Below are positions 16,549 through 56,912 of a DNA stretch of 64,000 nucleotides, one piece after another; the stretch's first letter is position 1; each line of letters opens with the position of its first letter. Under the pieces are notes generated by a model. That model saw only the letters and a list, made by a program, of their open reading frames with translations, was not told the origin of the DNA and did not search any database. The translations under genes were made by a program, and so were the position numbers. The stretch lies in NCBI RefSeq assembly GCF_058153355.1, contig NZ_CM177019.1. The stretch is one strand, 5' to 3'.

Positions 16549-17580
16549 TTAGTCGCTGGTTGCATGATGACTTGCCTCCAGCGACGGAGTTGACACTGAA
16601 TGGCGACGTACCAGCGTCGGACTAAAGACATTAGTGATTTCCGGGAGAGGGCGATTATCAGCCAGCGCCAAAGCCAGTTCGGCAGCCTGGGTCGCCATCG
16701 TCACGATTGGGTAACGCACGGTGGTCAGACGCGGGCGCACATAGCGTGACACCAGCACATCATCAAAGCCAATTAACGAAATCTCACCCGGTACTTCAAT
16801 ACCATTATCATTGAGAACGCCCATCGCACCCGCCGCCATTGAATCGTTATAACAGGCTACCGCAGTGAAATTCCTTCCGCGTCCCAAAAGCTCGGTCATT
16901 GCCTGTTCGCCGCCGCTTTCGTCTGGTTCGCCAAATGTCACTAGCCGGTCATTGGCCGGAATACCACTTTCAGCAAGGGCATCGTAATACCCTTGCAGAC
17001 GATCTTCGGCGTCAGAAATAGAGTGGTTAGAGCACAGATAACCAATGCGGGTATGACCTTGCTGAATTAAATGACGCGTTGCCAGCCAGGCACCGTAACG
17101 ATCGTCCAGAGCAATACAACGGTTTTCAAAGCCAGGCAGGATACGGTTGATCAGCACCATACCGGGCATTTGTTTCATTAATGAGGCTAAATCGGCATCC
17201 GGGATCATTTTGGCATGGACAACCAGCGCAGCACAGCGGTGGCGGATCAGTTGCTCAATGGCCTGACGCTCTTTTTGTTCGTTGTGGTAACCGTTGCCAA
17301 TCAATAAAAAATTACCAGTGTGATAAGCCACCTGCTCGACCGCTTTCACCATTGCACCGAAAAACGGATCGGAAACATCACCAACGACCAGACCGACCGT
17401 TTCAGTGGTCTGTTGCGCCAGCGCACGGGCGTTGGCGTTCGGGTGATAACTAAGAGACTCCATTGCACTATGCACAGCCAGCCGGGAGGCTTCGCTGGCT
17501 TTGGGTGAATTATTAATGACGCGGGAAACGGTGGCGACTGAAACGCCTGCCAGTCGGGCTACATCCTTTATGGTCGCCAT
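16549..17580 (-). CDS. galR: Galactose operon repressor (LacI/GalR family)
   Basis: 343-aa ORF beginning MATIKDVARLAGVSVATVSRVIN (LacI-type HTH). Confidence 0.92.
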   Translation of the reverse strand: MATIKDVARLAGVSVATVSRVINNSPKASEASRLAVHSAMESLSYHPNANARALAQQTTETVGLVVGDVSDPFFGAMVKAVEQVAYHTGNFLLIGNGYHNEQKERQAIEQLIRHRCAALVVHAKMIPDADLASLMKQMPGMVLINRILPGFENRCIALDDRYGAWLATRHLIQQGHTRIGYLCSNHSISDAEDRLQGYYDALAESGIPANDRLVTFGEPDESGGEQAMTELLGRGRNFTAVACYNDSMAAGAMGVLNDNGIEVPGEISLIGFDDVLVSRYVRPRLTTVRYPIVTMATQAAELALALADNRPLPEITNVFSPTLVRRHSVSTPSLEASHHATSD

Positions 17581-17793
17581 GAAAATACCTTAGTGGGTAA
17601 ACGCTTACATTCTGTCAGTGTTACGGAAAATACCTGTTGGTTCAAGTGGCGACGTGTTTTCATCGTGGGAATGTGAGCCAAACGCAAATAAATAAGACAA
17701 AAAAAGAGATTGCAAACCTTTGGTTACACTTTGCGAAACGCTGTTGCGATTGACCGCTGGTTGCGTTTGGCTTCAGGTTGCTAAAGTGGTGGT

Positions 17794-17876
17794 CCCAGAG
17801 GTATTGATAGGTGAAGTCAACTTCGGGTTGAGCACATGAATTACACCAGCCTGCGCAGATGCGCAGGTTTTTTTTT
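17794..17876 (+). ncRNA. omrB: OmrB small regulatory RNA (Hfq-dependent, OmpR-regulated)
   Basis: Sequence CCCAGAGGTATTGATAGGTGAAGTCAACTTCGGGTTGAGCACATGAATTACACCAGCCTGCGCAGATGCGCAGG + T-run matches OmrB; in the galR-aas intergenic region. Confidence 0.9.
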
Positions 17877-17990
17877 GCCGGTCATCAATCTGTAACAGTA
17901 ACCGACAATTTACACACCTCGTTGCATTTCCCTTCATTCCTTTGCGTTTTATCGCTGGCGAAGAGTCGTCGTGCAGACCACAATCAAGAT

Positions 17991-18078
17991 CCCAGAGGTA
18001 TTGATTGGTGAGATTATTCGGTACGCTCTTCGTACCCTGTCTCTTGCACCAACCTGCGCGGATGCGCAGGTTTTTTTT
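17991..18078 (+). ncRNA. omrA: OmrA small regulatory RNA
   Basis: Sequence CCCAGAGGTATTGATTGGTGAGATTATTCGGTACGCTCTTCGTACCCTGTCTCTTGCACCAACCTGCGCGGATGCGCAGG + T-run; shares 5' and 3' ends with OmrB. Confidence 0.9.
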
Positions 18079-18144
18079 CGCACCTAATTTACTGTCGCTC
18101 GCGTTCTTTATCTCGTGTAATCTCCCTCCATTCGCTTTTACTGA

Positions 18145-21511
<3,367 letters not shown>

Positions 21512-21542
21512 TATTTAACGCCGGTTTTAACCGGCGTTAATC

Positions 21543-22583
21543 TTATGGTGCCGGATAAGTATAAACCTGATGCACCGCTTCAATTTCAGCTAATACGTCT
21601 TCGCTTAACTCCAGATGCAAACTTTCGACGTTAGTTTTCAGCTGCTCCATCGTGGTTGCGCCCAGCAGAGTGCTGGCAACAAACGGTTGACGGCGTACAA
21701 AAGCGAGCGCCATCTGAGCAGGATCCAGGCCATGACGTCTGGCGATATCAACATACGCCGCGACGGCTTTTTGCGTTTGCTCACCGCTATAGCGGGTGAA
21801 CCGACTAAAGAGCGTATTACGTGCGCCAGCGGGTTTTGCACCGTTGAGATATTTCCCGGTCAGCGTGCCGAAACCCAGGCACGAATAGGCCAGCAGTTCG
21901 ACCCCTTCATACTGGCTGACTTCTGCCAGACCTACTTCAAAACTGCGGTTTAACAGACTGTAAGGGTTCTGAATGGTGACAATACGCGGCAGATCGTGTT
22001 TGTCCGCCAGATGCAGGTAGCGCATTACGCCAAATGCAGTTTCGTTCGACACGCCGATATAACGAATTTTCCCCGCGCGTTGGTACTCTGCCAGTGCGTC
22101 CAGCGTATCCAGCAGCGAAACCGCAGGGGCAGAATCTGTCCAGCTATAACCGAGTTTGCCGAAGCAGTTGGTTGGGCGCTGCGGCCAGTGCACCTGATAA
22201 AGATCGAGGTAATCAGTCTGCAGGTGCTTGAGGCTGTCATGCAGAGCTTCGCGGATATTCTTCCGATCCAGCGCCTGATCCGGGCGGATGCCCTTGTCAT
22301 TATTGCGCGACGGTCCGCTCACTTTGGAAGCGATAATTAACTTTTCGCGGCTGCCATGTTTTGCCAGCCAGTTGCCGACGTAGGTTTCGGTTAACCCTTG
22401 CGTTTCGGGGCGCGGAGGTACTGGGTACATTTCGGCAACGTCGATAAGGTTAATGCCCTGAGCGACGGCATAGTCGAGTTGTGCGTGGGCGTCGGCTTCG
22501 CTGTTCTGTTCACCAAACGTCATCGTGCCAAGCCCCAGCGTGCTGACTTCCAGCGAACTGTGGGGTATACGGTGATATTGCAT
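21543..22583 (-). CDS. tas: Aldo-keto reductase Tas
   Basis: 346-aa aldo/keto reductase family ORF. Confidence 0.9.
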   Translation of the reverse strand: MQYHRIPHSSLEVSTLGLGTMTFGEQNSEADAHAQLDYAVAQGINLIDVAEMYPVPPRPETQGLTETYVGNWLAKHGSREKLIIASKVSGPSRNNDKGIRPDQALDRKNIREALHDSLKHLQTDYLDLYQVHWPQRPTNCFGKLGYSWTDSAPAVSLLDTLDALAEYQRAGKIRYIGVSNETAFGVMRYLHLADKHDLPRIVTIQNPYSLLNRSFEVGLAEVSQYEGVELLAYSCLGFGTLTGKYLNGAKPAGARNTLFSRFTRYSGEQTQKAVAAYVDIARRHGLDPAQMALAFVRRQPFVASTLLGATTMEQLKTNVESLHLELSEDVLAEIEAVHQVYTYPAP

Positions 22584-22690
22584 AGCCGTTTCCTTTTTAT
22601 AATCACGACATAAGGAATATAAAAATGGCAGAGGGAAGGGAAAAGGGAAAGAGAAAAATCTTAAGGCCAGCCGGATGCTGACCTTATTTG

Positions 22691-22909
22691 TTAACGTTCA
22701 ATAATTTGCGAAACATCATCACGGTTAATTTGCATCGCGTTACCTTGCTGATCGTGATAACTCACCAGCCCGGTATCATCATCAATTTCAGGTTTTCCAT
22801 CGGTCAAAATCATACGGCCATCTTTGGTCGCCATGACGTAATCACTGGAACACCCGGATACAGCAAACGCCAGTCCGACTGCAGAAATTATTACTGCCCA
22901 TTTTTTCAT
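22691..22909 (-). CDS. ygdR: Small lipoprotein, DUF903 family
   Basis: [22 protein letters not shown] lipobox; 72 aa; paralogous to the ygdI product at 56460. Confidence 0.85.
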
Positions 22910-23045
22910 CCGGTTATCCTCATTTGGCCCACCTATGATAATAGTCTTTTTATAAACCGACGTTATATATCTTGAAAGCAGGAAAATCTTAAACTGTGAG
23001 GGTAACAGGAGTGAGTACGCTCTCCTGCAGGAGAGCGTACGGATA

Positions 23046-23759
23046 TCAGAGCGGATTCTTTTTGTTGCGAATAAGGTTGAGACTTTCAACCGCAATAGAG
23101 AAGAACATCGCGAAGTAGATGTAACCTTTCGGTACGTGGATGTCGAAACTTTCCAGAATCAGGGTAAAGCCCACCAGAATCAGGAAAGAGAGCGCCAGCA
23201 TTTTTACCGAAGGATGGCGTTCGACAAAATCACCAATCGAGCGCGCGGCAAACATCATCACGCCTACGGCAATCACCACGGCTGCCATCATAATAAACAG
23301 GTGATCTGACAGACCCACAGCGGTAATCACCGAGTCGAGGCTGAAGATGATATCCAGCAGCATAATCTGCACGATAGCGCCGAGGAATGATGAAACGCGT
23401 GTTTTCAGCCCTTCTTCTTCACCTTCAATGGATTCGTGGATTTCCTTGCTGGCTTTCCAGATAAGGAACAAGCCACCCAGAAGCAGAATCAAATCACGGG
23501 CGGAAATTTCCTGACTGAATATTGTAAAAAGCGGATTCGTCAGGCGCGTAACCCAGGCGATTGATGCCAGCAGCGCCAGACGCATAACCATGGCTCCCGC
23601 CAACCCCAGACGCCGCGCATGAGCACGTTGTGCTGTGGGGAGCTTTGCCACCACCAGAGAAAGAAAAATAATATTGTCGATCCCAAGAACGATCTCCAGC
23701 AGCGTCAGCGTACCGAGCGCAAGCCAGGCGTTAGGATCGGTTATCCATGCAAATAACAT
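23046..23759 (-). CDS. ygdQ: TerC-family inner membrane protein
   Basis: 237-aa multi-TM ORF, syntenic. Confidence 0.85.
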
Positions 23760-35295: not shown

Positions 35296-38219
35296 ATGCC
35301 CCGCAGCACCTGGTTCAAAGCATTATTGTTGTTTGTTGCCCTTTGGGCACCCTTAAGTCAGGCAGAAACGGGATGGCAGCCGATTCAGGAAACCATCCGT
35401 AAAAGTGATAAAGATAACCGCCAGTATCAGGCTATACGTCTGGATAACGGTATGGTGGTTTTGCTGGTTTCTGACCCGCAGGCGGTTAAATCGCTCTCGG
35501 CGCTGGTGGTGCCCGTTGGGTCGCTGGAAGATCCCGAGGCATACCAGGGGCTGGCACATTACCTTGAACATATGAGTCTGATGGGTTCGAAAAAGTACCC
35601 GCAGGCTGACAGTCTGGCTGAATACCTCAAAATGCACGGCGGCAGCCACAATGCCAGCACGGCACCGTATCGCACGGCTTTCTATCTGGAAGTTGAGAAC
35701 GACGCCTTACCCGGTGCGGTAGACCGCCTGGCCGATGCTATTGCTGAACCCTTGCTCGACAAGAAATACGCCGAACGTGAGCGTAATGCGGTGAACGCTG
35801 AATTAACCATGGCGCGTACGCGTGATGGGATGCGCATGGCACAGGTCAGCGCAGAAACCATTAACCCGGCACACCCAGGTTCAAAGTTTTCTGGTGGTAA
35901 CCTCGAAACTTTAAGCGATAAACCCGGCAATCCGGTACAGCAGGCGCTGAAAGATTTCCACGAGAAATATTACTCTGCCAATCTGATGAAGGCGGTTATC
36001 TATAGCAAGAAGCCGCTACCGGAGCTGGCGAAGATGGCTGCTGATACTTTCGGTCGCGTGCCGAACAAAGAGAGCAAAAAACCGGAAATCACTGTGCCGG
36101 TAGTCACCGACGCGCAAAAGGGCATTATCATTCATTACGTCCCGGCGCTGCCGCGTAAAGTTCTGCGCGTTGAGTTTCGCATCGATAACAATTCAGCGAA
36201 GTTCCGTAGTAAAACGGATGAATTGATTACCTATCTGATTGGTAATCGCAGCCCAGGTACACTTTCTGACTGGCTGCAAAAGCAGGGATTAGTTGAGGGC
36301 ATTAGCGCCAATTCCGATCCTATCGTCAACGGCAACAGCGGCGTATTAGCGATCTCTGCGTCTTTAACCGATAAAGGTCTGGCGAATCGCGATCAGGTTG
36401 TGGCGGCCATTTTTAGCTACCTCAATCTGTTACGCGAAAAAGGGATTGATAAACAATACTTCGATGAACTGGCGAATGTGCTGGATATCGACTTTCGTTA
36501 TCCGTCAATCACCCGTGATATGGATTACGTCGAATGGCTGGCAGATACCATGATTCGCGTTCCTGTTGAGCATACGCTGGATGCAGTCAATATTGCCGAT
36601 CGGTACGATGCTAAAGCAGTAAAAGAACGCCTGGCGATGATGACGCCGCAGAATGCGCGTATCTGGTATATCAGCCCGAAAGAGCCGCATAACAAAACGG
36701 CTTATTTTGTCGATGCTCCGTATCAGGTCGATAAAATCAGCCCACAAACTTTCGCTGACTGGCAGAAAAAAGCCGCCCACAAACTTTCGCTGACTGGCAG
36801 AAAAAAGCCGCCAATATTGCGCTCTCCTTACCGGAGCTTAACCCTTATATTCCTGACGATTTCTCGCTGATGAAGTCAGAGAAGAAATACGACCATCCAG
36901 AGTTGATTGTGGATGAGGCGAATCTGCGCGTGGTGTATGCGCCGAGCCGTTATTTTGCCAGCGAGCCTAAAGCCGATGTCAGCCTGATTTTGCGTAACCC
37001 GAAAGCCATGGACAGCGCCCGCAATCAGGTGATGTTTGCGCTTAATGATTATCTTGCCGGACTGGCGCTTGATCAGTTAAGCAACCAGGCGTCGGTTGGT
37101 GGCATAAGTTTTTCCACCAATGCTAACAACGGCCTTATGGTTAATGCCAATGGTTACACCCAGCGCCTGCCGCAGCTGTTCCAGGCTCTGCTGGAGGGCT
37201 ACTTTAGCTATACCGCTACGGAAGAGCAGCTTGAGCAGGCGAAGTCCTGGTATAACCAGATGATGGATTCCGCAGAAAAGGGCAAAGCGTTCGAGCAGGC
37301 GATTATGCCCGCGCAGATGCTCTCGCAAGTGCCGTACTTCTCGCGAGATGAACGGCGCAAAATTTTGCCTTCAATCACTTTGAAAGAGGTGCTGGCCTAT
37401 CGCGACGCCTTAAAATCAGGGGCTCGACCAGAGTTTATGGTTATTGGCAACATGACCGAAGCCCAGGCAACAAAGCTGGCACGCGATGTGCAAAAACAGT
37501 TGGGCGCTGATGGTTCGGAGTGGTGTCGTAACAAAGATGTCGTGGTCGATAAAAAACAATCCGTCATCTTTGAAAAAGCCGGTAACAGCACCGACTCCGC
37601 ACTGGCAGCGGTATTTGTACCGACTGGCTACGATGAATACACCAGCTCAGCCTATAGCTCTCTGCTGGGGCAGATCGTACAGCCGTGGTTCTACAATCAG
37701 TTGCGTACCGAAGAACAGTTGGGCTATGCCGTGTTTGCGTTTCCAATGAGCGTGGGACGTCAGTGGGGCATGGGCTTCCTGTTGCAAAGCAATGATAAAC
37801 AGCCTTCATTCTTGTGGGAGCGTTACAAGGCGTTTTTCCCAACCGCAGAGGCAAAATTGCGGACGATGAAGCCAGAAGAGTTTGCGCAAATCCAGCAGGC
37901 GGTAATAACCCAGATGCTGCAGGCACCGCAAACGCTCGGCGAAGAAGCATCGAAGTTAAGTAAAGATTTCGATCGCGGCAATATGCGCTTCGATTCGCGT
38001 GATAAAATCGTGGCCCAGATAAAACTGCTGACGCCGCAAAAACTTGCTGATTTCTTCCATCAGGCGGTGGTCGAGCCGCAAGGCATGGCTATTCTGTCGC
38101 AGATTTCCGGCAGCCAGAACGGGAAAGCCGAATATGTGCATCCTGAAGGCTGGAAAGTGTGGGAGAACGTCAGCGCGTTGCAGCAAACAATGCCCCTGAT
38201 GAGTGAAAAGAATGAGTGA
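35296..38219 (+). pseudogene. ptrA: Protease III (pitrilysin, M16 family) disrupted by a 35-bp tandem duplication frameshift at 36742-36811
   Basis: Two consecutive ORFs (35296..36870, 36870..38219) together cover Ptr; HxxEH zinc motif (HYLEHM) in the N-terminal part; direct repeat CCACAAACTTTCGCTGACTGGCAGAAAAAAGCCGC occurs twice in tandem. Confidence 0.8.
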
Positions 38220-46889: not shown

Positions 46890-47714
46890 ATGATCATCGA
46901 AAAAGTCATGAACAATAATTGTGTACAGGCATCGATGAATGGACAGGAGGTTATCATTTCTGGGCCTGGCGTCGGTTACAACAAAAAATATGGAATGTCG
47001 GTCCCTGAGCATCCGGCTAACCGGATTTTTTATGTCAGAAATGAACAAAAAAATAAACTCTACAAATTGATTGAACATGTGGATATTGAGTATGTTTTTG
47101 TTGCCGAAAAAATAGTGCAATATGCGGAGAACAATCTCGAAAAAAATCTCAATCCATCGCTACTATTGATTCTTGCTGATCATATTTCGAATGCAATATC
47201 CCGAGTCGCTTCAGGCATACAAATTAATAATGTTTTCCTTGATGAAATCAAAGCGTTGTACAAAGCAGAGTATGCGATAAGTCGCGATGCATTAACTATC
47301 ATTAATGAGCAATTCAGCGTTCAACTTCCTGATGATGAGATTGGTTTTATAGCATTGCATATTTTAAATAATTATGAAAATTCAGTTGATTATGAATCAG
47401 TACGGATTATTGAGTTGTCGCAAATAATCACGGGGCTTATTGAAGTTGTTTATAACAGAAAGGTGGACAGAAGTTCATTTAATTATTCCAGGTTCATGAT
47501 ACACCTTAAATATTTTTCAAGTCGCGTATTATGCAATGAAAAAATAAAACAGAAAGATATTGGTGATCTCTATGAACAGTTTCTTGAGAAAGACATTCTG
47601 TTACAGCGCGCAATTCATGAAATTGAAAGGTATTTGTACGCCACTTTTAAATATGAATTGATTTTGGAAGAAAAACTATATCTCTCTATTCGCACCAAAG
47701 TATTAATGGACTAA
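46890..47714 (+). CDS. BglG/LicT-family transcription antiterminator (CAT RNA-binding domain + PRD domains)
   Basis: ORF 46833..47714; start placed at ATG 46890 with GGAG 8 nt upstream; N-terminal CAT-like region (MIIEKVMNNNCVQASMNGQEVIISGPGVGY…) and PRD-like segments; AT-rich. Confidence 0.75.
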   Translation: MIIEKVMNNNCVQASMNGQEVIISGPGVGYNKKYGMSVPEHPANRIFYVRNEQKNKLYKLIEHVDIEYVFVAEKIVQYAENNLEKNLNPSLLLILADHISNAISRVASGIQINNVFLDEIKALYKAEYAISRDALTIINEQFSVQLPDDEIGFIALHILNNYENSVDYESVRIIELSQIITGLIEVVYNRKVDRSSFNYSRFMIHLKYFSSRVLCNEKIKQKDIGDLYEQFLEKDILLQRAIHEIERYLYATFKYELILEEKLYLSIRTKVLMD

Positions 47715-47745
47715 TTATATATAACATTTATATGAGATAACCCGC

Positions 47746-49326
47746 ATGAAACAAAAGAAAGCCTGGAGTTTTTTTCAGAGCCTGGGAAAGGCATTTATGT
47801 ATCCCATCGCTCTGCTAAGTGTATGTGGCATGATGTTAGGGCTAGGAAGTGGTTTAGCCAGCGATGATATGGCAAAATTAATTCCACTACTGGCTATTCC
47901 CGTAATTAAAACCATTCTTGATTTTATTGTTAGCCTTGGTTTGTTTGCCTTTGTCAATTTACCTGTATTGTTTGCGATAGCTATACCTCTGGGGTTATTA
48001 AAAGAGAAAGAGGATAAAGCCTATGGCGCTTTTTCTGGCTTAATTGGTTTCATGGCGATGCATCTGGGAACGAACTTTTATCTTAAACAACATGACTTAT
48101 TGGTCGCTGCTGATCAAATGTCGACACATGGGCAAACCATTATTCTGGGAATCCAGTCCTACAATACCAGTGTGTTGGGTGGGATTATAGCAGGATTATT
48201 AGTCGCCAGTATGTATAAAAAGATCGTTAACTTACGTATTCCTGAATCATTAGGATTTTATAGTGGCCCACGCCTGGTGCCTATTATTACACTGATTGTG
48301 ATGAGCGGATTTGGTCTGATCATCCCTTTTATCTGGCCGCCATTTTTCAATCTTTTCATGCTCATTGGCCACTGGATTTCAACTTCCGGTCCTGTTGGCT
48401 ATTTTTTCTATGCAGTCGCCGAACGCGTGACGATACCTTTTGGTTTAAATCACCTGGTGACGTCAGTTTTCCGCTTTACCCCCATCGGCGGATCGGCAGT
48501 GATCGGCGGAGAAGAGTATTATGGCACCCTGAACATGTTTATGGCGTACGTCAAAGAGAATGCGGTCATTCCGCTGGATTTGGCGGGGAAAATGGAACAG
48601 GGCAAACTGATGATTCAGTATGGTCTGGCTGGTGCCGCGCTGGCGATGTATCGCACTGCTCATGCTCAAAACAGAAAAGCTATCAAAGCATTGCTTATTT
48701 CCGGGGTGCTTACAGTCATTATTGGCGGCGTCAGCGAACCGATTGAGTTTCTGTTCTTATTTGTCAGTCCACTGCTATTTGTCTTCCATGCTTTTATGAA
48801 TGGATTCGCCAACATGGTCTTGCCATATATGGGCGTGAAGATGGGATTTACTGGCGATCTGATTCAATTTATTAGCTTTGGCGTATTGCGTGGCACAAGA
48901 ACAGGTTGGCCAATAGCGGTGTGTGTCGAAGTGGCCTATTTCTTTATTTATTACTTTGTGTTCCGTTGGACTATTCTCAAATTTAACCTGATGACGGTAG
49001 GCCGTGAAGAGTCCAGTCCTGTCACGCTGAACGCTCATGAGGATACGGCTATAGCGGATATCCCAACGCTTGATAAATCAGAGCTGCAAGCAGCGGAGCA
49101 GATGGTTAAGGCACTTGGTGGTAAAGAGAATATTAAATCCCTGGATAATTGCGTAACTCGTTTACGTTTAACAATCGCAGATATGGGATTGATTGACGAG
49201 GCAGCAATAAAAAGAGCTGGCGGAATTGCGGTTGTTAAACTTGATCAAAATACCCTACAAGTCATTATCGGTACTAAAGTCATCGCCTTGCGTCGGGATA
49301 TGGATAACTACATGGGGATATGCTGA
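47746..49326 (+). CDS. PTS EIICB component, glucose/maltose (MalX-like) family
   Basis: 526-aa ORF, multi-TM EIIC followed by a C-terminal EIIB domain with phosphorylatable Cys motif (NCVTRLRL). Confidence 0.85.
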   Translation: MKQKKAWSFFQSLGKAFMYPIALLSVCGMMLGLGSGLASDDMAKLIPLLAIPVIKTILDFIVSLGLFAFVNLPVLFAIAIPLGLLKEKEDKAYGAFSGLIGFMAMHLGTNFYLKQHDLLVAADQMSTHGQTIILGIQSYNTSVLGGIIAGLLVASMYKKIVNLRIPESLGFYSGPRLVPIITLIVMSGFGLIIPFIWPPFFNLFMLIGHWISTSGPVGYFFYAVAERVTIPFGLNHLVTSVFRFTPIGGSAVIGGEEYYGTLNMFMAYVKENAVIPLDLAGKMEQGKLMIQYGLAGAALAMYRTAHAQNRKAIKALLISGVLTVIIGGVSEPIEFLFLFVSPLLFVFHAFMNGFANMVLPYMGVKMGFTGDLIQFISFGVLRGTRTGWPIAVCVEVAYFFIYYFVFRWTILKFNLMTVGREESSPVTLNAHEDTAIADIPTLDKSELQAAEQMVKALGGKENIKSLDNCVTRLRLTIADMGLIDEAAIKRAGGIAVVKLDQNTLQVIIGTKVIALRRDMDNYMGIC

Positions 49327-50501
49327 TGGATGTTTTTAATACTCCTATTTCCCGCAAAGGAACATATTGTACCCAATGGGACTTTTGCGAGGACAGATTT
49401 GGTGTAAAAGATGTATTACCATTCTCTATTTCAGATATGGATCTTCCGATACCGGAAGCTATCATCAGGGCATTAAGAAAACGTCTGGAACACCCGATTT
49501 TAGGGTACAGCCGTTGGCAGCATGATGACTATCTGAATGCGATAGTCAATTGGTATCATCAACAATATAAAACTGAAATCAAACCAGAATGGATCACCTA
49601 TAGCCCAAGCGTGATGTACTCCATTGCTAAAGCAATAGAGTTATTGACATCGCATGGTGATAATATTCTCGTTTTTACACCTGTCTATAATGCATTTTTT
49701 GATATAATTAAACATAGCGAGAGAAATATTCTGACAGCCTCTTTGATTATAAAAAATGAGGGGGGCTACGCTATCAATTGGCAAGATTTTGATCTTAAGA
49801 TTCAAAGCGCAAAGATGGTGTTATTATGTAATCCTCATAACCCGACAGGAACCGTCTGGTCGGAAGAAGAGCTGCATAAAATCGCTGCAAGCTGTGCAAG
49901 ACATAATGTCTGGTTATGTTCAGATGAAATTCACAGTGATTTTGTTTTTAATCGTAGCTTTACATCTGCGCTTAAAATAAAAAAAGAAAAAGTAGTGGTG
50001 TTTAATTCGATATCGAAGACATTTAATGTTCCTGCGCTAACAGGATCGTATATGATTTCAACTGACGATAATTTTAATCATAAGTTCAGAACGATATCAA
50101 GATATCGCGATTTTGTAAACTCCCCATCCGTACTGAATATAATTGCAACTATTATTGCCTATAACGAATGTGAGGGATGGTTAACGTCATTAAAGGCACA
50201 TATTGCCTCTAACATTCAATTCACCCAGCAGTATCTGAACGAAAATACTCCAGAATTGATCGTAAGGCCAGCTGATGGTTGCTATTTTTCGTGGATAGAT
50301 TGCTCTGCTATTGGTTATCCCTTTGATGAATTCTACAGTCGATTAATTCATGAAGGCAAAGTGGGCATTATGGCGGGGAATGTCTATGGAACGGAGGGGG
50401 AGGGCTACCTTCGTCTGAACCTGGCCTGCGGTCGAGAAAAATTATATATGGGGCTTACGCGTCTTGCGAGTGTAATTAAAAATATTAATCAAGGAAAATA
50501 A
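49320..50501 (+). CDS. PLP-dependent C-S lyase / aminotransferase, MalY/PatB-like paralog
   Basis: Conserved blocks shared with MalY: TYCTQWDF, LPFSISDMD, GYSRW, CNPHNPTG, SDEIH, NSISKTFNVPALTG (PLP lysine). Confidence 0.8.
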   Translation: MLMDVFNTPISRKGTYCTQWDFCEDRFGVKDVLPFSISDMDLPIPEAIIRALRKRLEHPILGYSRWQHDDYLNAIVNWYHQQYKTEIKPEWITYSPSVMYSIAKAIELLTSHGDNILVFTPVYNAFFDIIKHSERNILTASLIIKNEGGYAINWQDFDLKIQSAKMVLLCNPHNPTGTVWSEEELHKIAASCARHNVWLCSDEIHSDFVFNRSFTSALKIKKEKVVVFNSISKTFNVPALTGSYMISTDDNFNHKFRTISRYRDFVNSPSVLNIIATIIAYNECEGWLTSLKAHIASNIQFTQQYLNENTPELIVRPADGCYFSWIDCSAIGYPFDEFYSRLIHEGKVGIMAGNVYGTEGEGYLRLNLACGREKLYMGLTRLASVIKNINQGK

Positions 50502-50503
50502 AA

Positions 50504-51100
50504 ATGAACAGCACGGATCTTATCCATCTCATTAAACATTTTATGCGTAACGAACATAAAGCAGTTGAAGAAGTTATTGATTCTCCCCTTTCGGAGGTCG
50601 CAAATTTAATTAAAGTATTACAGTCTTGTCAGGGGAAAGTTGTTTTTATTGGTGTCGGTAAGTCCGGTATTATTGCCCGAAAACTCGCCGCAACATTTGC
50701 CAGCACTGGAACTCCCTCGTTTTTTGTTCACGGTACTGAAGCCGTACACGGCGATCTTGGGATGGTGGCGAAAGATGATGTTGTTATTCTTATTTCAAAC
50801 AGTGGTGAGACGACAGAAATCCTGGCAACACTACCTAGTCTGAAAAAAATGGGTAATTATTTGATCTCCTTTACCCGCAGTCATCGCTCATCGCTTGCGA
50901 TAAGTTGTGATTTATCCGTTGAAATTCCCGTAAAAAGTGAGGCGGATAATTTAGGTTTAGCGCCGTCATGCTCATCAACAGTCGTTCTGGTTGTTGGTGA
51001 TGCGGTGGCGCTTGCGCTCTCCGAATTGAAAAAGTTTACTCGTGCTGATTTCGGCTTATATCATCCAGGAGGTGCGCTCGGTATTAAAGCAAACTCATAA
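50504..51100 (+). CDS. SIS-domain sugar-phosphate isomerase-like protein (KdsD/GutQ-like SIS domain, no CBS domains)
   Basis: VVFIGVGKSGIIARKLAATFASTGTPSFFVHGTEAVHGDLGMV closely resembles the KdsD/GutQ SIS core; only 198 aa. Confidence 0.75.
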   Translation: MNSTDLIHLIKHFMRNEHKAVEEVIDSPLSEVANLIKVLQSCQGKVVFIGVGKSGIIARKLAATFASTGTPSFFVHGTEAVHGDLGMVAKDDVVILISNSGETTEILATLPSLKKMGNYLISFTRSHRSSLAISCDLSVEIPVKSEADNLGLAPSCSSTVVLVVGDAVALALSELKKFTRADFGLYHPGGALGIKANS

Positions 51101-51161
51101 TTTTAGAATATAAAACAGTAACCGGTCACGCCATCTTTTGGGGTGGCGTTCATTGATGTGA

Positions 51162-52118
51162 GTGTCAGCTATGAAAAACGTTCTGGTCACCGTTCCCAGC
51201 TTTTCAGCGCGTTGTGTTTCTGCCAGCAAGCTGCTAAGAGAAAATCATTTTAACCTTATTATCAAGAATAATGTGGAGCATCTGGTTAAATCAGAATCCA
51301 CAGTATTACGAGAATCTATTTGCGCAGTCATTGCCGGAAAAGATTGTTATCAAGCGGATACGTTATCGCGACTACCAGGAGTGAAAATAATATCGAGATT
51401 CGGGACAGGGATTGATAATATTGATCTTCATACGGCTCGACAATCAGGTATTGTGGTCAATAATGCTGTTGGGATTAATTCAAATGCAGTCGCGGAATTT
51501 ATCATTGGTCTTATTTTTGCGAGCATGAGAAATATCCCCGGTAGCTATCATGCAATGCAAAATGGTTATTGGGGCGAGTCGCATGGCTGCGAGTTACAAG
51601 GTAAACGTATTGGCCTGCTTGGCTATGGCAATATTGGCAAAACACTGGCGAAAAGGTTATCTGGTTTTGATGTTGAGCTTTTAGCTTTTGACAAACAACC
51701 CGATTTCCAGGCCGCAGGCAAAGATGGAGTTCAGTTCGTATCAATTGAAGATATCTTTATGCAGTCTCATGTCATCATCGTTCTTTTGCCATTTTCTCCG
51801 GAGCTGGAGAACTTCATTAGTCATAAATATTTGTCGATGATGCGCAATGGTGCTCTTATCATCAACGCCGCAAGGGGAAAGTTGCTGGATGAGGGTGCTT
51901 TACTTCAGGTAATTGAAGAACGAAATGTTTTTGCAGCACTGGATGTGTTTAGCTCTGAACCGCTAGCGCAATTTAGCCCATTGCTACATGCCAGGAATAT
52001 CATTACAACGCCGCATATTGCGGCCGCCACCGTTGAGTCATACCAGCAAACCGGGATATACGTTGCCAGGTCGATAATAGATTTCTTTGCAGGAAGGGAG
52101 ATAAAAAACGTGCTGTGA
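51162..52118 (+). CDS. D-isomer-specific 2-hydroxyacid dehydrogenase family protein (NAD-binding)
   Basis: 318-aa ORF with GLLGYGNIGKTLAKRL Rossmann motif, family catalytic His/Arg context. Confidence 0.8.
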   Translation: MSAMKNVLVTVPSFSARCVSASKLLRENHFNLIIKNNVEHLVKSESTVLRESICAVIAGKDCYQADTLSRLPGVKIISRFGTGIDNIDLHTARQSGIVVNNAVGINSNAVAEFIIGLIFASMRNIPGSYHAMQNGYWGESHGCELQGKRIGLLGYGNIGKTLAKRLSGFDVELLAFDKQPDFQAAGKDGVQFVSIEDIFMQSHVIIVLLPFSPELENFISHKYLSMMRNGALIINAARGKLLDEGALLQVIEERNVFAALDVFSSEPLAQFSPLLHARNIITTPHIAAATVESYQQTGIYVARSIIDFFAGREIKNVL

Positions 52119-52147
52119 GGTCAGCTAAGGAAGATTTCAGGTACAAA

Positions 52148-52196: not shown

Positions 52197-52273
<77 letters not shown>

Positions 52274-52306: not shown

Positions 52307-52383
<77 letters not shown>

Positions 52384-56706: not shown

Positions 56707-56912
56707 AAAAAAAAGCACCGCAATTAGGCGGTGCTACATTAATCACTATGGACAGACAGGGTAAATGTACAGGAAGTGAAAAAAGGTAGCTTTGCTACCA
56801 TGGTCTGAATCGCAGACCAATTGCAAACACAACAACACAACATCACAACCGTAAGCCAAAAGTTCACCAGAACACGCATTCCGATAAAACTTTTCGTTCC
56901 GGCTCAGGAAGT
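56707..56912 (-). ncRNA. gcvB: GcvB small regulatory RNA
   Basis: Reverse complement begins ACTTCCTGAGCCGGAACGAAAAGTTTTATCGGAATGCGTGTTCTGGTGAACTTTTGGCTTACGGTTGTGATGTTGTGTTGTTGTGTTTGCAATTGG… and ends with hairpin + T8; divergent from gcvA. Confidence 0.9.

Follow-up and report, generated by a model that had tools for sequence, protein, structure and literature searches.

The tandem small RNA genes omrB and omrA between galR and aas in a strain of Escherichia coli

The small RNAs (sRNAs) OmrA and OmrB have been under study since 2001–2006 and are still an active topic. In Escherichia coli K-12, both RNAs pair with their 5′ end near the translation initiation regions of ompT and cirA, and this control needs Hfq and RNase E (PMC2588501). 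Mutation of the 5′ end abolishes the control of all targets tested, and compensatory mutations identified ompR as a direct target (PMC2588501). Both genes are activated by OmpR, with omrA being σS-dependent via a C at position −12 and omrB carrying a T at this position (PMC12692685). Also, RstB-RstA in multicopy specifically activates omrB (PMC13425233).

In this study, we analyzed the galR-aas intergenic region within a 64-kb stretch of DNA (the window). The region was compared with K-12, with EC42405, the E. coli record that matches this stretch best, and with related loci in the Enterobacterales. A sequence-only reading of the window had proposed a tandem OmrB-OmrA pair at this place, partly covered by a spurious open reading frame (ORF).

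Identity and structure of the two RNAs

The galR-aas intergenic region comprises 585 nt (17581–18165) and was found in 5423 of 5426 complete E. coli genomes. On its upstream side lies galR (16549–17580, minus strand), a 343-aa ORF starting MATIKDVARLAGVS that is annotated as galR in EC42405 and K-12 and is transcribed away from the sRNA pair. On the other side lies the 719-aa ORF annotated as aas (18166–20325, plus strand), which is co-oriented with the sRNAs and starts 87 nt past the OmrA terminator. The whole window was scanned against Rfam 15 at gathering thresholds, the gathering score of the OmrA-B family RF00079 being 40 bits. Two untruncated matches to this family were obtained on the plus strand, each spanning model positions 1–87 of 87 and each scoring more than twice the gathering score: OmrB at 17794–17875 (82 nt; 86.1 bits, E 2.3e-15) and OmrA at 17991–18078 (88 nt; 96.6 bits, E 6.4e-18). 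Both copies are thus full-length members of the family above its 40-bit threshold. A permissive Rfam scan of 17400–18400 gave, beyond OmrA-B, only sub-threshold Leu_leader and SgrS matches over the terminators, which we consider to be chance matches.

The upstream copy is 100% identical over its 82 nt to K-12 omrB (b4445), and the downstream copy is 100% identical over its 88 nt to K-12 omrA (b4444). This agrees with the architecture of the two RNAs: OmrA, with 88 nt and a 32-nt centre, lies on the aas side, and OmrB, with 82 nt and a 26-nt centre, on the galR side; the same lengths and centre sizes are given in PMC12692685. As in K-12, the genes form a tandem pair between galR and aas in the orientation of aas. 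The Infernal scan that the sequence-only reading had suggested as its check returned two strong OmrA-B matches and reproduced the outer coordinates 17794–18078 exactly, and the proposed order, OmrB before OmrA, and the placement between the two flanking genes proved right. It is almost certain that the region encodes the paralogous trans-acting sRNAs OmrB and OmrA of an E. coli strain, each with its own promoter and Rho-independent terminator, and that the 78-aa ORF over OmrA is a chance frame. As K-12-identical RNAs, they belong to a system that has already been described, so that flagging the locus was correct but ordinary.

An alignment of the two copies with each other showed 15 of 15 identical positions at the 5′ end, 20 of 21 over the first 21, and 32 of 35 at the 3′ end, while the 26-nt and 32-nt centres are unrelated. 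The distinct central parts noticed beforehand were hence found again. The 5′ seed and 3′ terminator regions had been called identical, which is correct in substance and should read nearly identical, because they differ at one of 21 positions at the 5′ end and at three of 35 at the 3′ end. Both sRNAs start with the 15-mer CCCAGAGGTATTGAT, which is found nowhere else in the window; by chance, 0.14 matches at up to two mismatches would be expected. The conserved 5′ end of the family, CCCAGAGGUAUUGAU, is carried exactly by both copies. Short inverted-repeat matches between the sRNA 5′ ends and 17629–17643 near galR (80–83% complementary) were judged to be due to chance.

OmrB consists of the 5′ pairing end (17794–17814), a central hairpin (17817–17831) and a terminator stem-loop (17848–17869) followed by a U run. 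The corresponding parts of OmrA are located at 17991–18011, 18020–18036 and 18051–18072, the last again followed by a U run. According to a terminator scan, both terminators have 9-bp stems with six G-C pairs and are followed by T runs, so each copy ends with the Rho-independent terminator and U run typical for RF00079. By analogy with sRNAs of the OmrA-B class, terminator hairpin and U run are the predicted Hfq-binding module. The predicted folds have free energies of −26.6 kcal/mol for OmrB (z −2.9 vs dinucleotide shuffles) and −29.5 kcal/mol for OmrA (z −2.7). The 5′ end remains single-stranded in these folds, wholly in OmrA and for the most part in OmrB, and a GGUG/CACC helix encloses the copy-specific central hairpin in each RNA. 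RNAalifold did not recover the central hairpin from the OmrB-type copies because MAFFT misaligns the indel-rich centre; it is present in single-sequence folds and in the Rfam alignment.

Promoters, strain differences and relatives

The −10 elements were placed from conservation and from their distance to the 5′ ends of the K-12 RNAs, not by a σ70 scan. For omrB, the hexamer TAAAGT (17782–17787, plus strand) ends 6 nt before the +1 position at 17794, has the −12T described as a σ70 feature (PMC12692685), and is kept as TA[AG]AGT in most relatives. For omrA, the hexamer CACAAT (17979–17984, plus strand) likewise ends 6 nt before the +1 position at 17991; it has the −12C, reported as the determinant of σS specificity (PMC12692685), and the sequence CCACAATCAAGAT is nearly invariant in the relatives. 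A simple σ70 scan of 17581–18170 found no promoter site, neither for the sRNAs nor in the 87-nt spacer between omrA and aas. Such an outcome is expected where promoters depend on an activator and have poor −35 elements, and the scan gives no positive support for the promoters.

In a 12-genome alignment of the whole region, the upstream conservation of the two genes differed, with one long block for omrB and several for omrA. The omrB block, AACCTTTGGTTACACTTTGCGAAACGCTGTTGCGATTGACCGCTGG (17715–17760, plus strand, positions −79 to −34), hardly varies among 12 Enterobacteriaceae loci, in contrast to its surroundings. It is a candidate site for transcription-factor input, which we infer to be that of OmpR; conserved regions in the omrB promoter (PMC13425233) and direct activation by OmpR (PMC12692685) have been reported. 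A text search of PMC5175337 for details of OmpR binding gave no match. Upstream of omrA, a multi-genus alignment showed the plus-strand blocks TGTAACA (17891–17897), ATTTACACACCT and GTTGCATTT (17908–17929), TCATTCCTTTGCGTTTT (17934–17950) and GCTGG (17954–17958). These blocks within 17891–17958 fit the four conserved omrA promoter regions reported in PMC13425233, and our alignment agrees with the distinct conservation patterns of the two promoters published there.

The intergenic region is 99% identical to that of K-12, and all differences lie outside both RNAs. Eight substitutions are found near its galR end. Three further ones are located in promoter regions: T for the K-12 G at 17762 in the omrB −35 region, G for A at 17792, which is position −2 of omrB and is also G in E. 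albertii, and A for C at 17951, in the conserved block at −40 of omrA, which has C in most other genera. Also, the T run past the OmrB terminator (17876) has nine T instead of eight. At least two other complete genomes contain the intergenic sequence of the window at 100% identity.

For a wider comparison, genomes were scanned, one per species, with the 15-mer CCCAGAGGTATTGAT. Many matches in unrelated phyla were due to chance, as expected for 15 bases searched in 298 Gb, and the comparison was restricted to Enterobacterales loci. Tandem pairs of RF00079 copies were detected in E. albertii, Citrobacter, Enterobacter, Kosakonia, Pluralibacter, Serratia, and Edwardsiella; Dickeya, Erwinia, Shimwellia, and Siccibacter each gave a single copy. 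About 2 kb, instead of about 115 nt, separate the two copies of Pantoea (P. stewartii: locus positions 2747–2822 and 4789–4879; Pantoea MAG: 647–722 and 2680–2770). The order galR, omrB, omrA, aas is conserved in Citrobacter, Enterobacter, Kosakonia, Pluralibacter, and Edwardsiella. In Serratia (S. grimesii), omrB, omrA and aas are kept together, with galR 2.5 kb from the upstream copy. Because of the different arrangements in Pantoea and S. grimesii, this tandem layout is not universal in the Enterobacterales. In all 14 tandem loci, aas starts 66–116 nt past the downstream terminator, and galR is divergent upstream wherever the locus reaches that far.

Among 24 aligned copies from 12 genomes, the 5′ end CCCAGAGGUAUUGAU shows no variation, partly by construction, because the loci were retrieved with the same 15-mer. 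The GGUG/CACC helix is also invariant across the aligned relatives, again in part owing to the mode of retrieval, while the central hairpins are variable, and the terminator stem shows compensatory changes across genera (G-C to A-U and C-G to U-A).

The 78-aa open reading frame and neighbouring features

The mechanical ORF list of the window contains a 78-aa ORF with a TTG start at 18005–18241 on the plus strand. From its start inside the OmrA seed, it extends across the OmrA terminator and into aas, where it covers the first 76 nt in a different frame. This ORF is a chance open frame. A Pfam search gave no match, and the ORF is not annotated in either of the two records examined, K-12 and EC42405. 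The corresponding frame of 13 related loci closes after 0–69 codons (47 aa in E. albertii) and begins with TCG or TAG in two of them; where the RNA stays conserved, frameshifts make the peptide diverge. It had been called spurious from the sequence alone, a judgment borne out by the lack of annotation, of a Pfam match, of a shared frame with aas and of conservation.

Three other readings of the region were considered. That the 78-aa ORF is a true protein-coding gene, or that OmrA is a dual-function RNA with an encoded peptide, finds some backing in the presence of the ORF in the list and in a GAGG 6 nt upstream of its TTG start, within the OmrA 5′ end. However, the 88-nt OmrA transcript ends before the frame reaches a stop codon. 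The full 78 aa would require read-through of a strong terminator and an out-of-frame overlap with aas. Pfam and the two annotations are silent on it, and the frame is not conserved in the 13 relatives, given the early stops, the two altered start codons and the frameshifts. Because of this missing conservation, a coding or dual-function role is rejected as effectively refuted, and we give it hardly any credence.

Equally far-fetched is an assignment of both elements to a cis-acting leader or attenuator of aas instead of independent trans-acting sRNAs. Both elements have the orientation of aas and lie near it (87 nt away in the window, 66–116 nt in relatives), and weak Leu_leader matches lie over both copies (27 and 23 bits vs a gathering score of 50). 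The terminator hairpins account for these scores, which reach only about half of the gathering score, while the RF00079 scores of both elements are more than twofold above threshold. Moreover, the identical K-12 RNAs act in trans via their 5′ end, as confirmed by compensatory mutations in targets (PMC2588501), and the separation of about 2 kb in Pantoea shows that the elements are not a fixed leader of aas. It is also very improbable that promoter variants have silenced one copy in this strain and left a single functional sRNA, although there are differences from K-12 at 17762 (omrB −35 region), 17792 (omrB −2) and 17951 (omrA −40 block) and lineages with only one copy have been reported (PMC13425233; PMC12692685). 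Silencing is unlikely because the variants leave both transcribed sequences, the two −10 hexamers and nearly every conserved upstream position unaffected. In addition, the G at omrB −2 is shared with E. albertii, and the same intergenic sequence occurs unchanged in at least two other complete genomes. Two independent trans-acting sRNAs, OmrB and OmrA, therefore remain the preferred reading.

For the downstream genes, it is conceivable, though unlikely, that part of the aas-lplT transcription comes from read-through of the OmrA terminator, and possibly also of the OmrB terminator. If true, this would couple the lysophospholipid-repair genes aas-lplT to the OmpR and σS signals of the sRNA promoters. 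As a lesser alternative, the strain-specific variants at 17762, 17792 and 17951 might shift the balance of OmrA and OmrB expression.

Further observations were made in the window. In the gap between lplT and tas (~21511–21547), it lacks a 1.66-kb gene for a DUF4139-domain protein that EC42405 contains (locus 21550–23205), which indicates a presence/absence polymorphism within E. coli. The recC-ptrA intergenic region (36761–36777) shows an indel of about 35 bp relative to EC42405, at the overlap of two BLAST segments, which may be a repeat-element difference. The window departs from EC42405, which is otherwise almost identical to it, over the first ~740 bases. These bases match IS3-family (IS2-like) transposase DNA, which is multicopy in E. 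coli genomes, and abut ygeH, encoding a HilA-family regulator of the ETT2 type III secretion island. Here, ygeH is a 384-aa ORF (691–1845, minus strand), compared to a 1377-nt gene (~458 aa) in EC42405, and was probably truncated by an insertion sequence.

A block of about 5.2 kb (~46890–52120) lies between amiC and the tRNA-Met genes and is absent from K-12, where amiC is located 73 nt from metV. According to the EC42405 annotation, it encodes a PRD-domain regulator, a PTS EIIC subunit, a MalY/PatB-family protein, a KpsF/GutQ-family isomerase and a phosphoglycerate dehydrogenase. The block resembles an accessory sugar-utilisation island beside a tRNA cluster. The initiator-type tRNA-Met(CAT) is encoded by two tandem genes on the minus strand (52197–52273 and 52307–52383), in contrast to three tRNA-Met genes in K-12 (metZ, metW, metV) and in EC42405. 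In this 110-nt tandem repeat, the difference in number may either be real or reflect an assembly collapse. Another sRNA, GcvB, was found at 56707–56912 on the minus strand as a full-length RF00022 match (199 bits), which by homology adjoins gcvA, as in K-12.

Regulation, annotation and comparison with known systems

Because the sequences are identical, the K-12 experiments apply to the RNAs of the window; for this strain, they allow expression, regulation and Hfq binding to be predicted by analogy. EnvZ-OmpR would activate transcription of both sRNAs, and omrA, having the −12C, would also depend on σS, in contrast to omrB with its −12T. OmrA and OmrB would bind Hfq, and their conserved 5′ end is expected to base-pair near the translation initiation regions of target mRNAs; as in K-12, these would include ompT, cirA, fecA, fepA, ompR-envZ, csgD, flhDC, btuB, dgcM, and others. 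Pairing is predicted to block translation and to promote RNase E-dependent decay. Since OmpR activates both sRNA genes, repression of ompR would close a negative feedback loop on OmrA and OmrB synthesis.

For this target, a duplex was predicted between the 5′ sequence CCCAGAGG and CCUUUGGG just upstream of the K-12 ompR start codon, with −16.9 kcal/mol for OmrA and −19.0 kcal/mol for OmrB. This accords with the evidence from compensatory mutations (PMC2588501), and the statistical support is modest because 4.6% of 500 shuffled seeds were as good.

The locus has little weight as a discovery, and its practical value lies in annotation. The RefSeq/PGAP record of EC42405 contains neither an omrA nor an omrB feature at the corresponding place (locus 1522–2106, equivalent to 17581–18165 of the window), in contrast to the curated K-12 record, which has both; therefore, ORF-based readings can mislabel the region. 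A naive six-frame or ORF reading puts a false 78-aa gene over OmrA. In the annotation of the window's strain, two ncRNA features should be added and the 78-aa ORF should be suppressed.

Compared to the closest known system, K-12 omrA (b4444, formerly rygA/sraE) and omrB (b4445, formerly rygB), the window is the same in the transcribed sequences, order, strand, −10 hexamers and terminators, and differs at 17762, 17792 and 17951, by one extra T and by the eight substitutions at the galR end. In a comparison of kind only, the pair resembles other Hfq-dependent sibling sRNA pairs of enterobacteria, in which duplicated genes share a seed and overlapping targets, while diverged promoters respond to different input signals (PMC4211561). 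Within this same comparison of kind, OmrA and OmrB are unlike the other sibling pairs (PMC4211561) in being adjacent, in tandem orientation, and composed of conserved ends with replaced centres.
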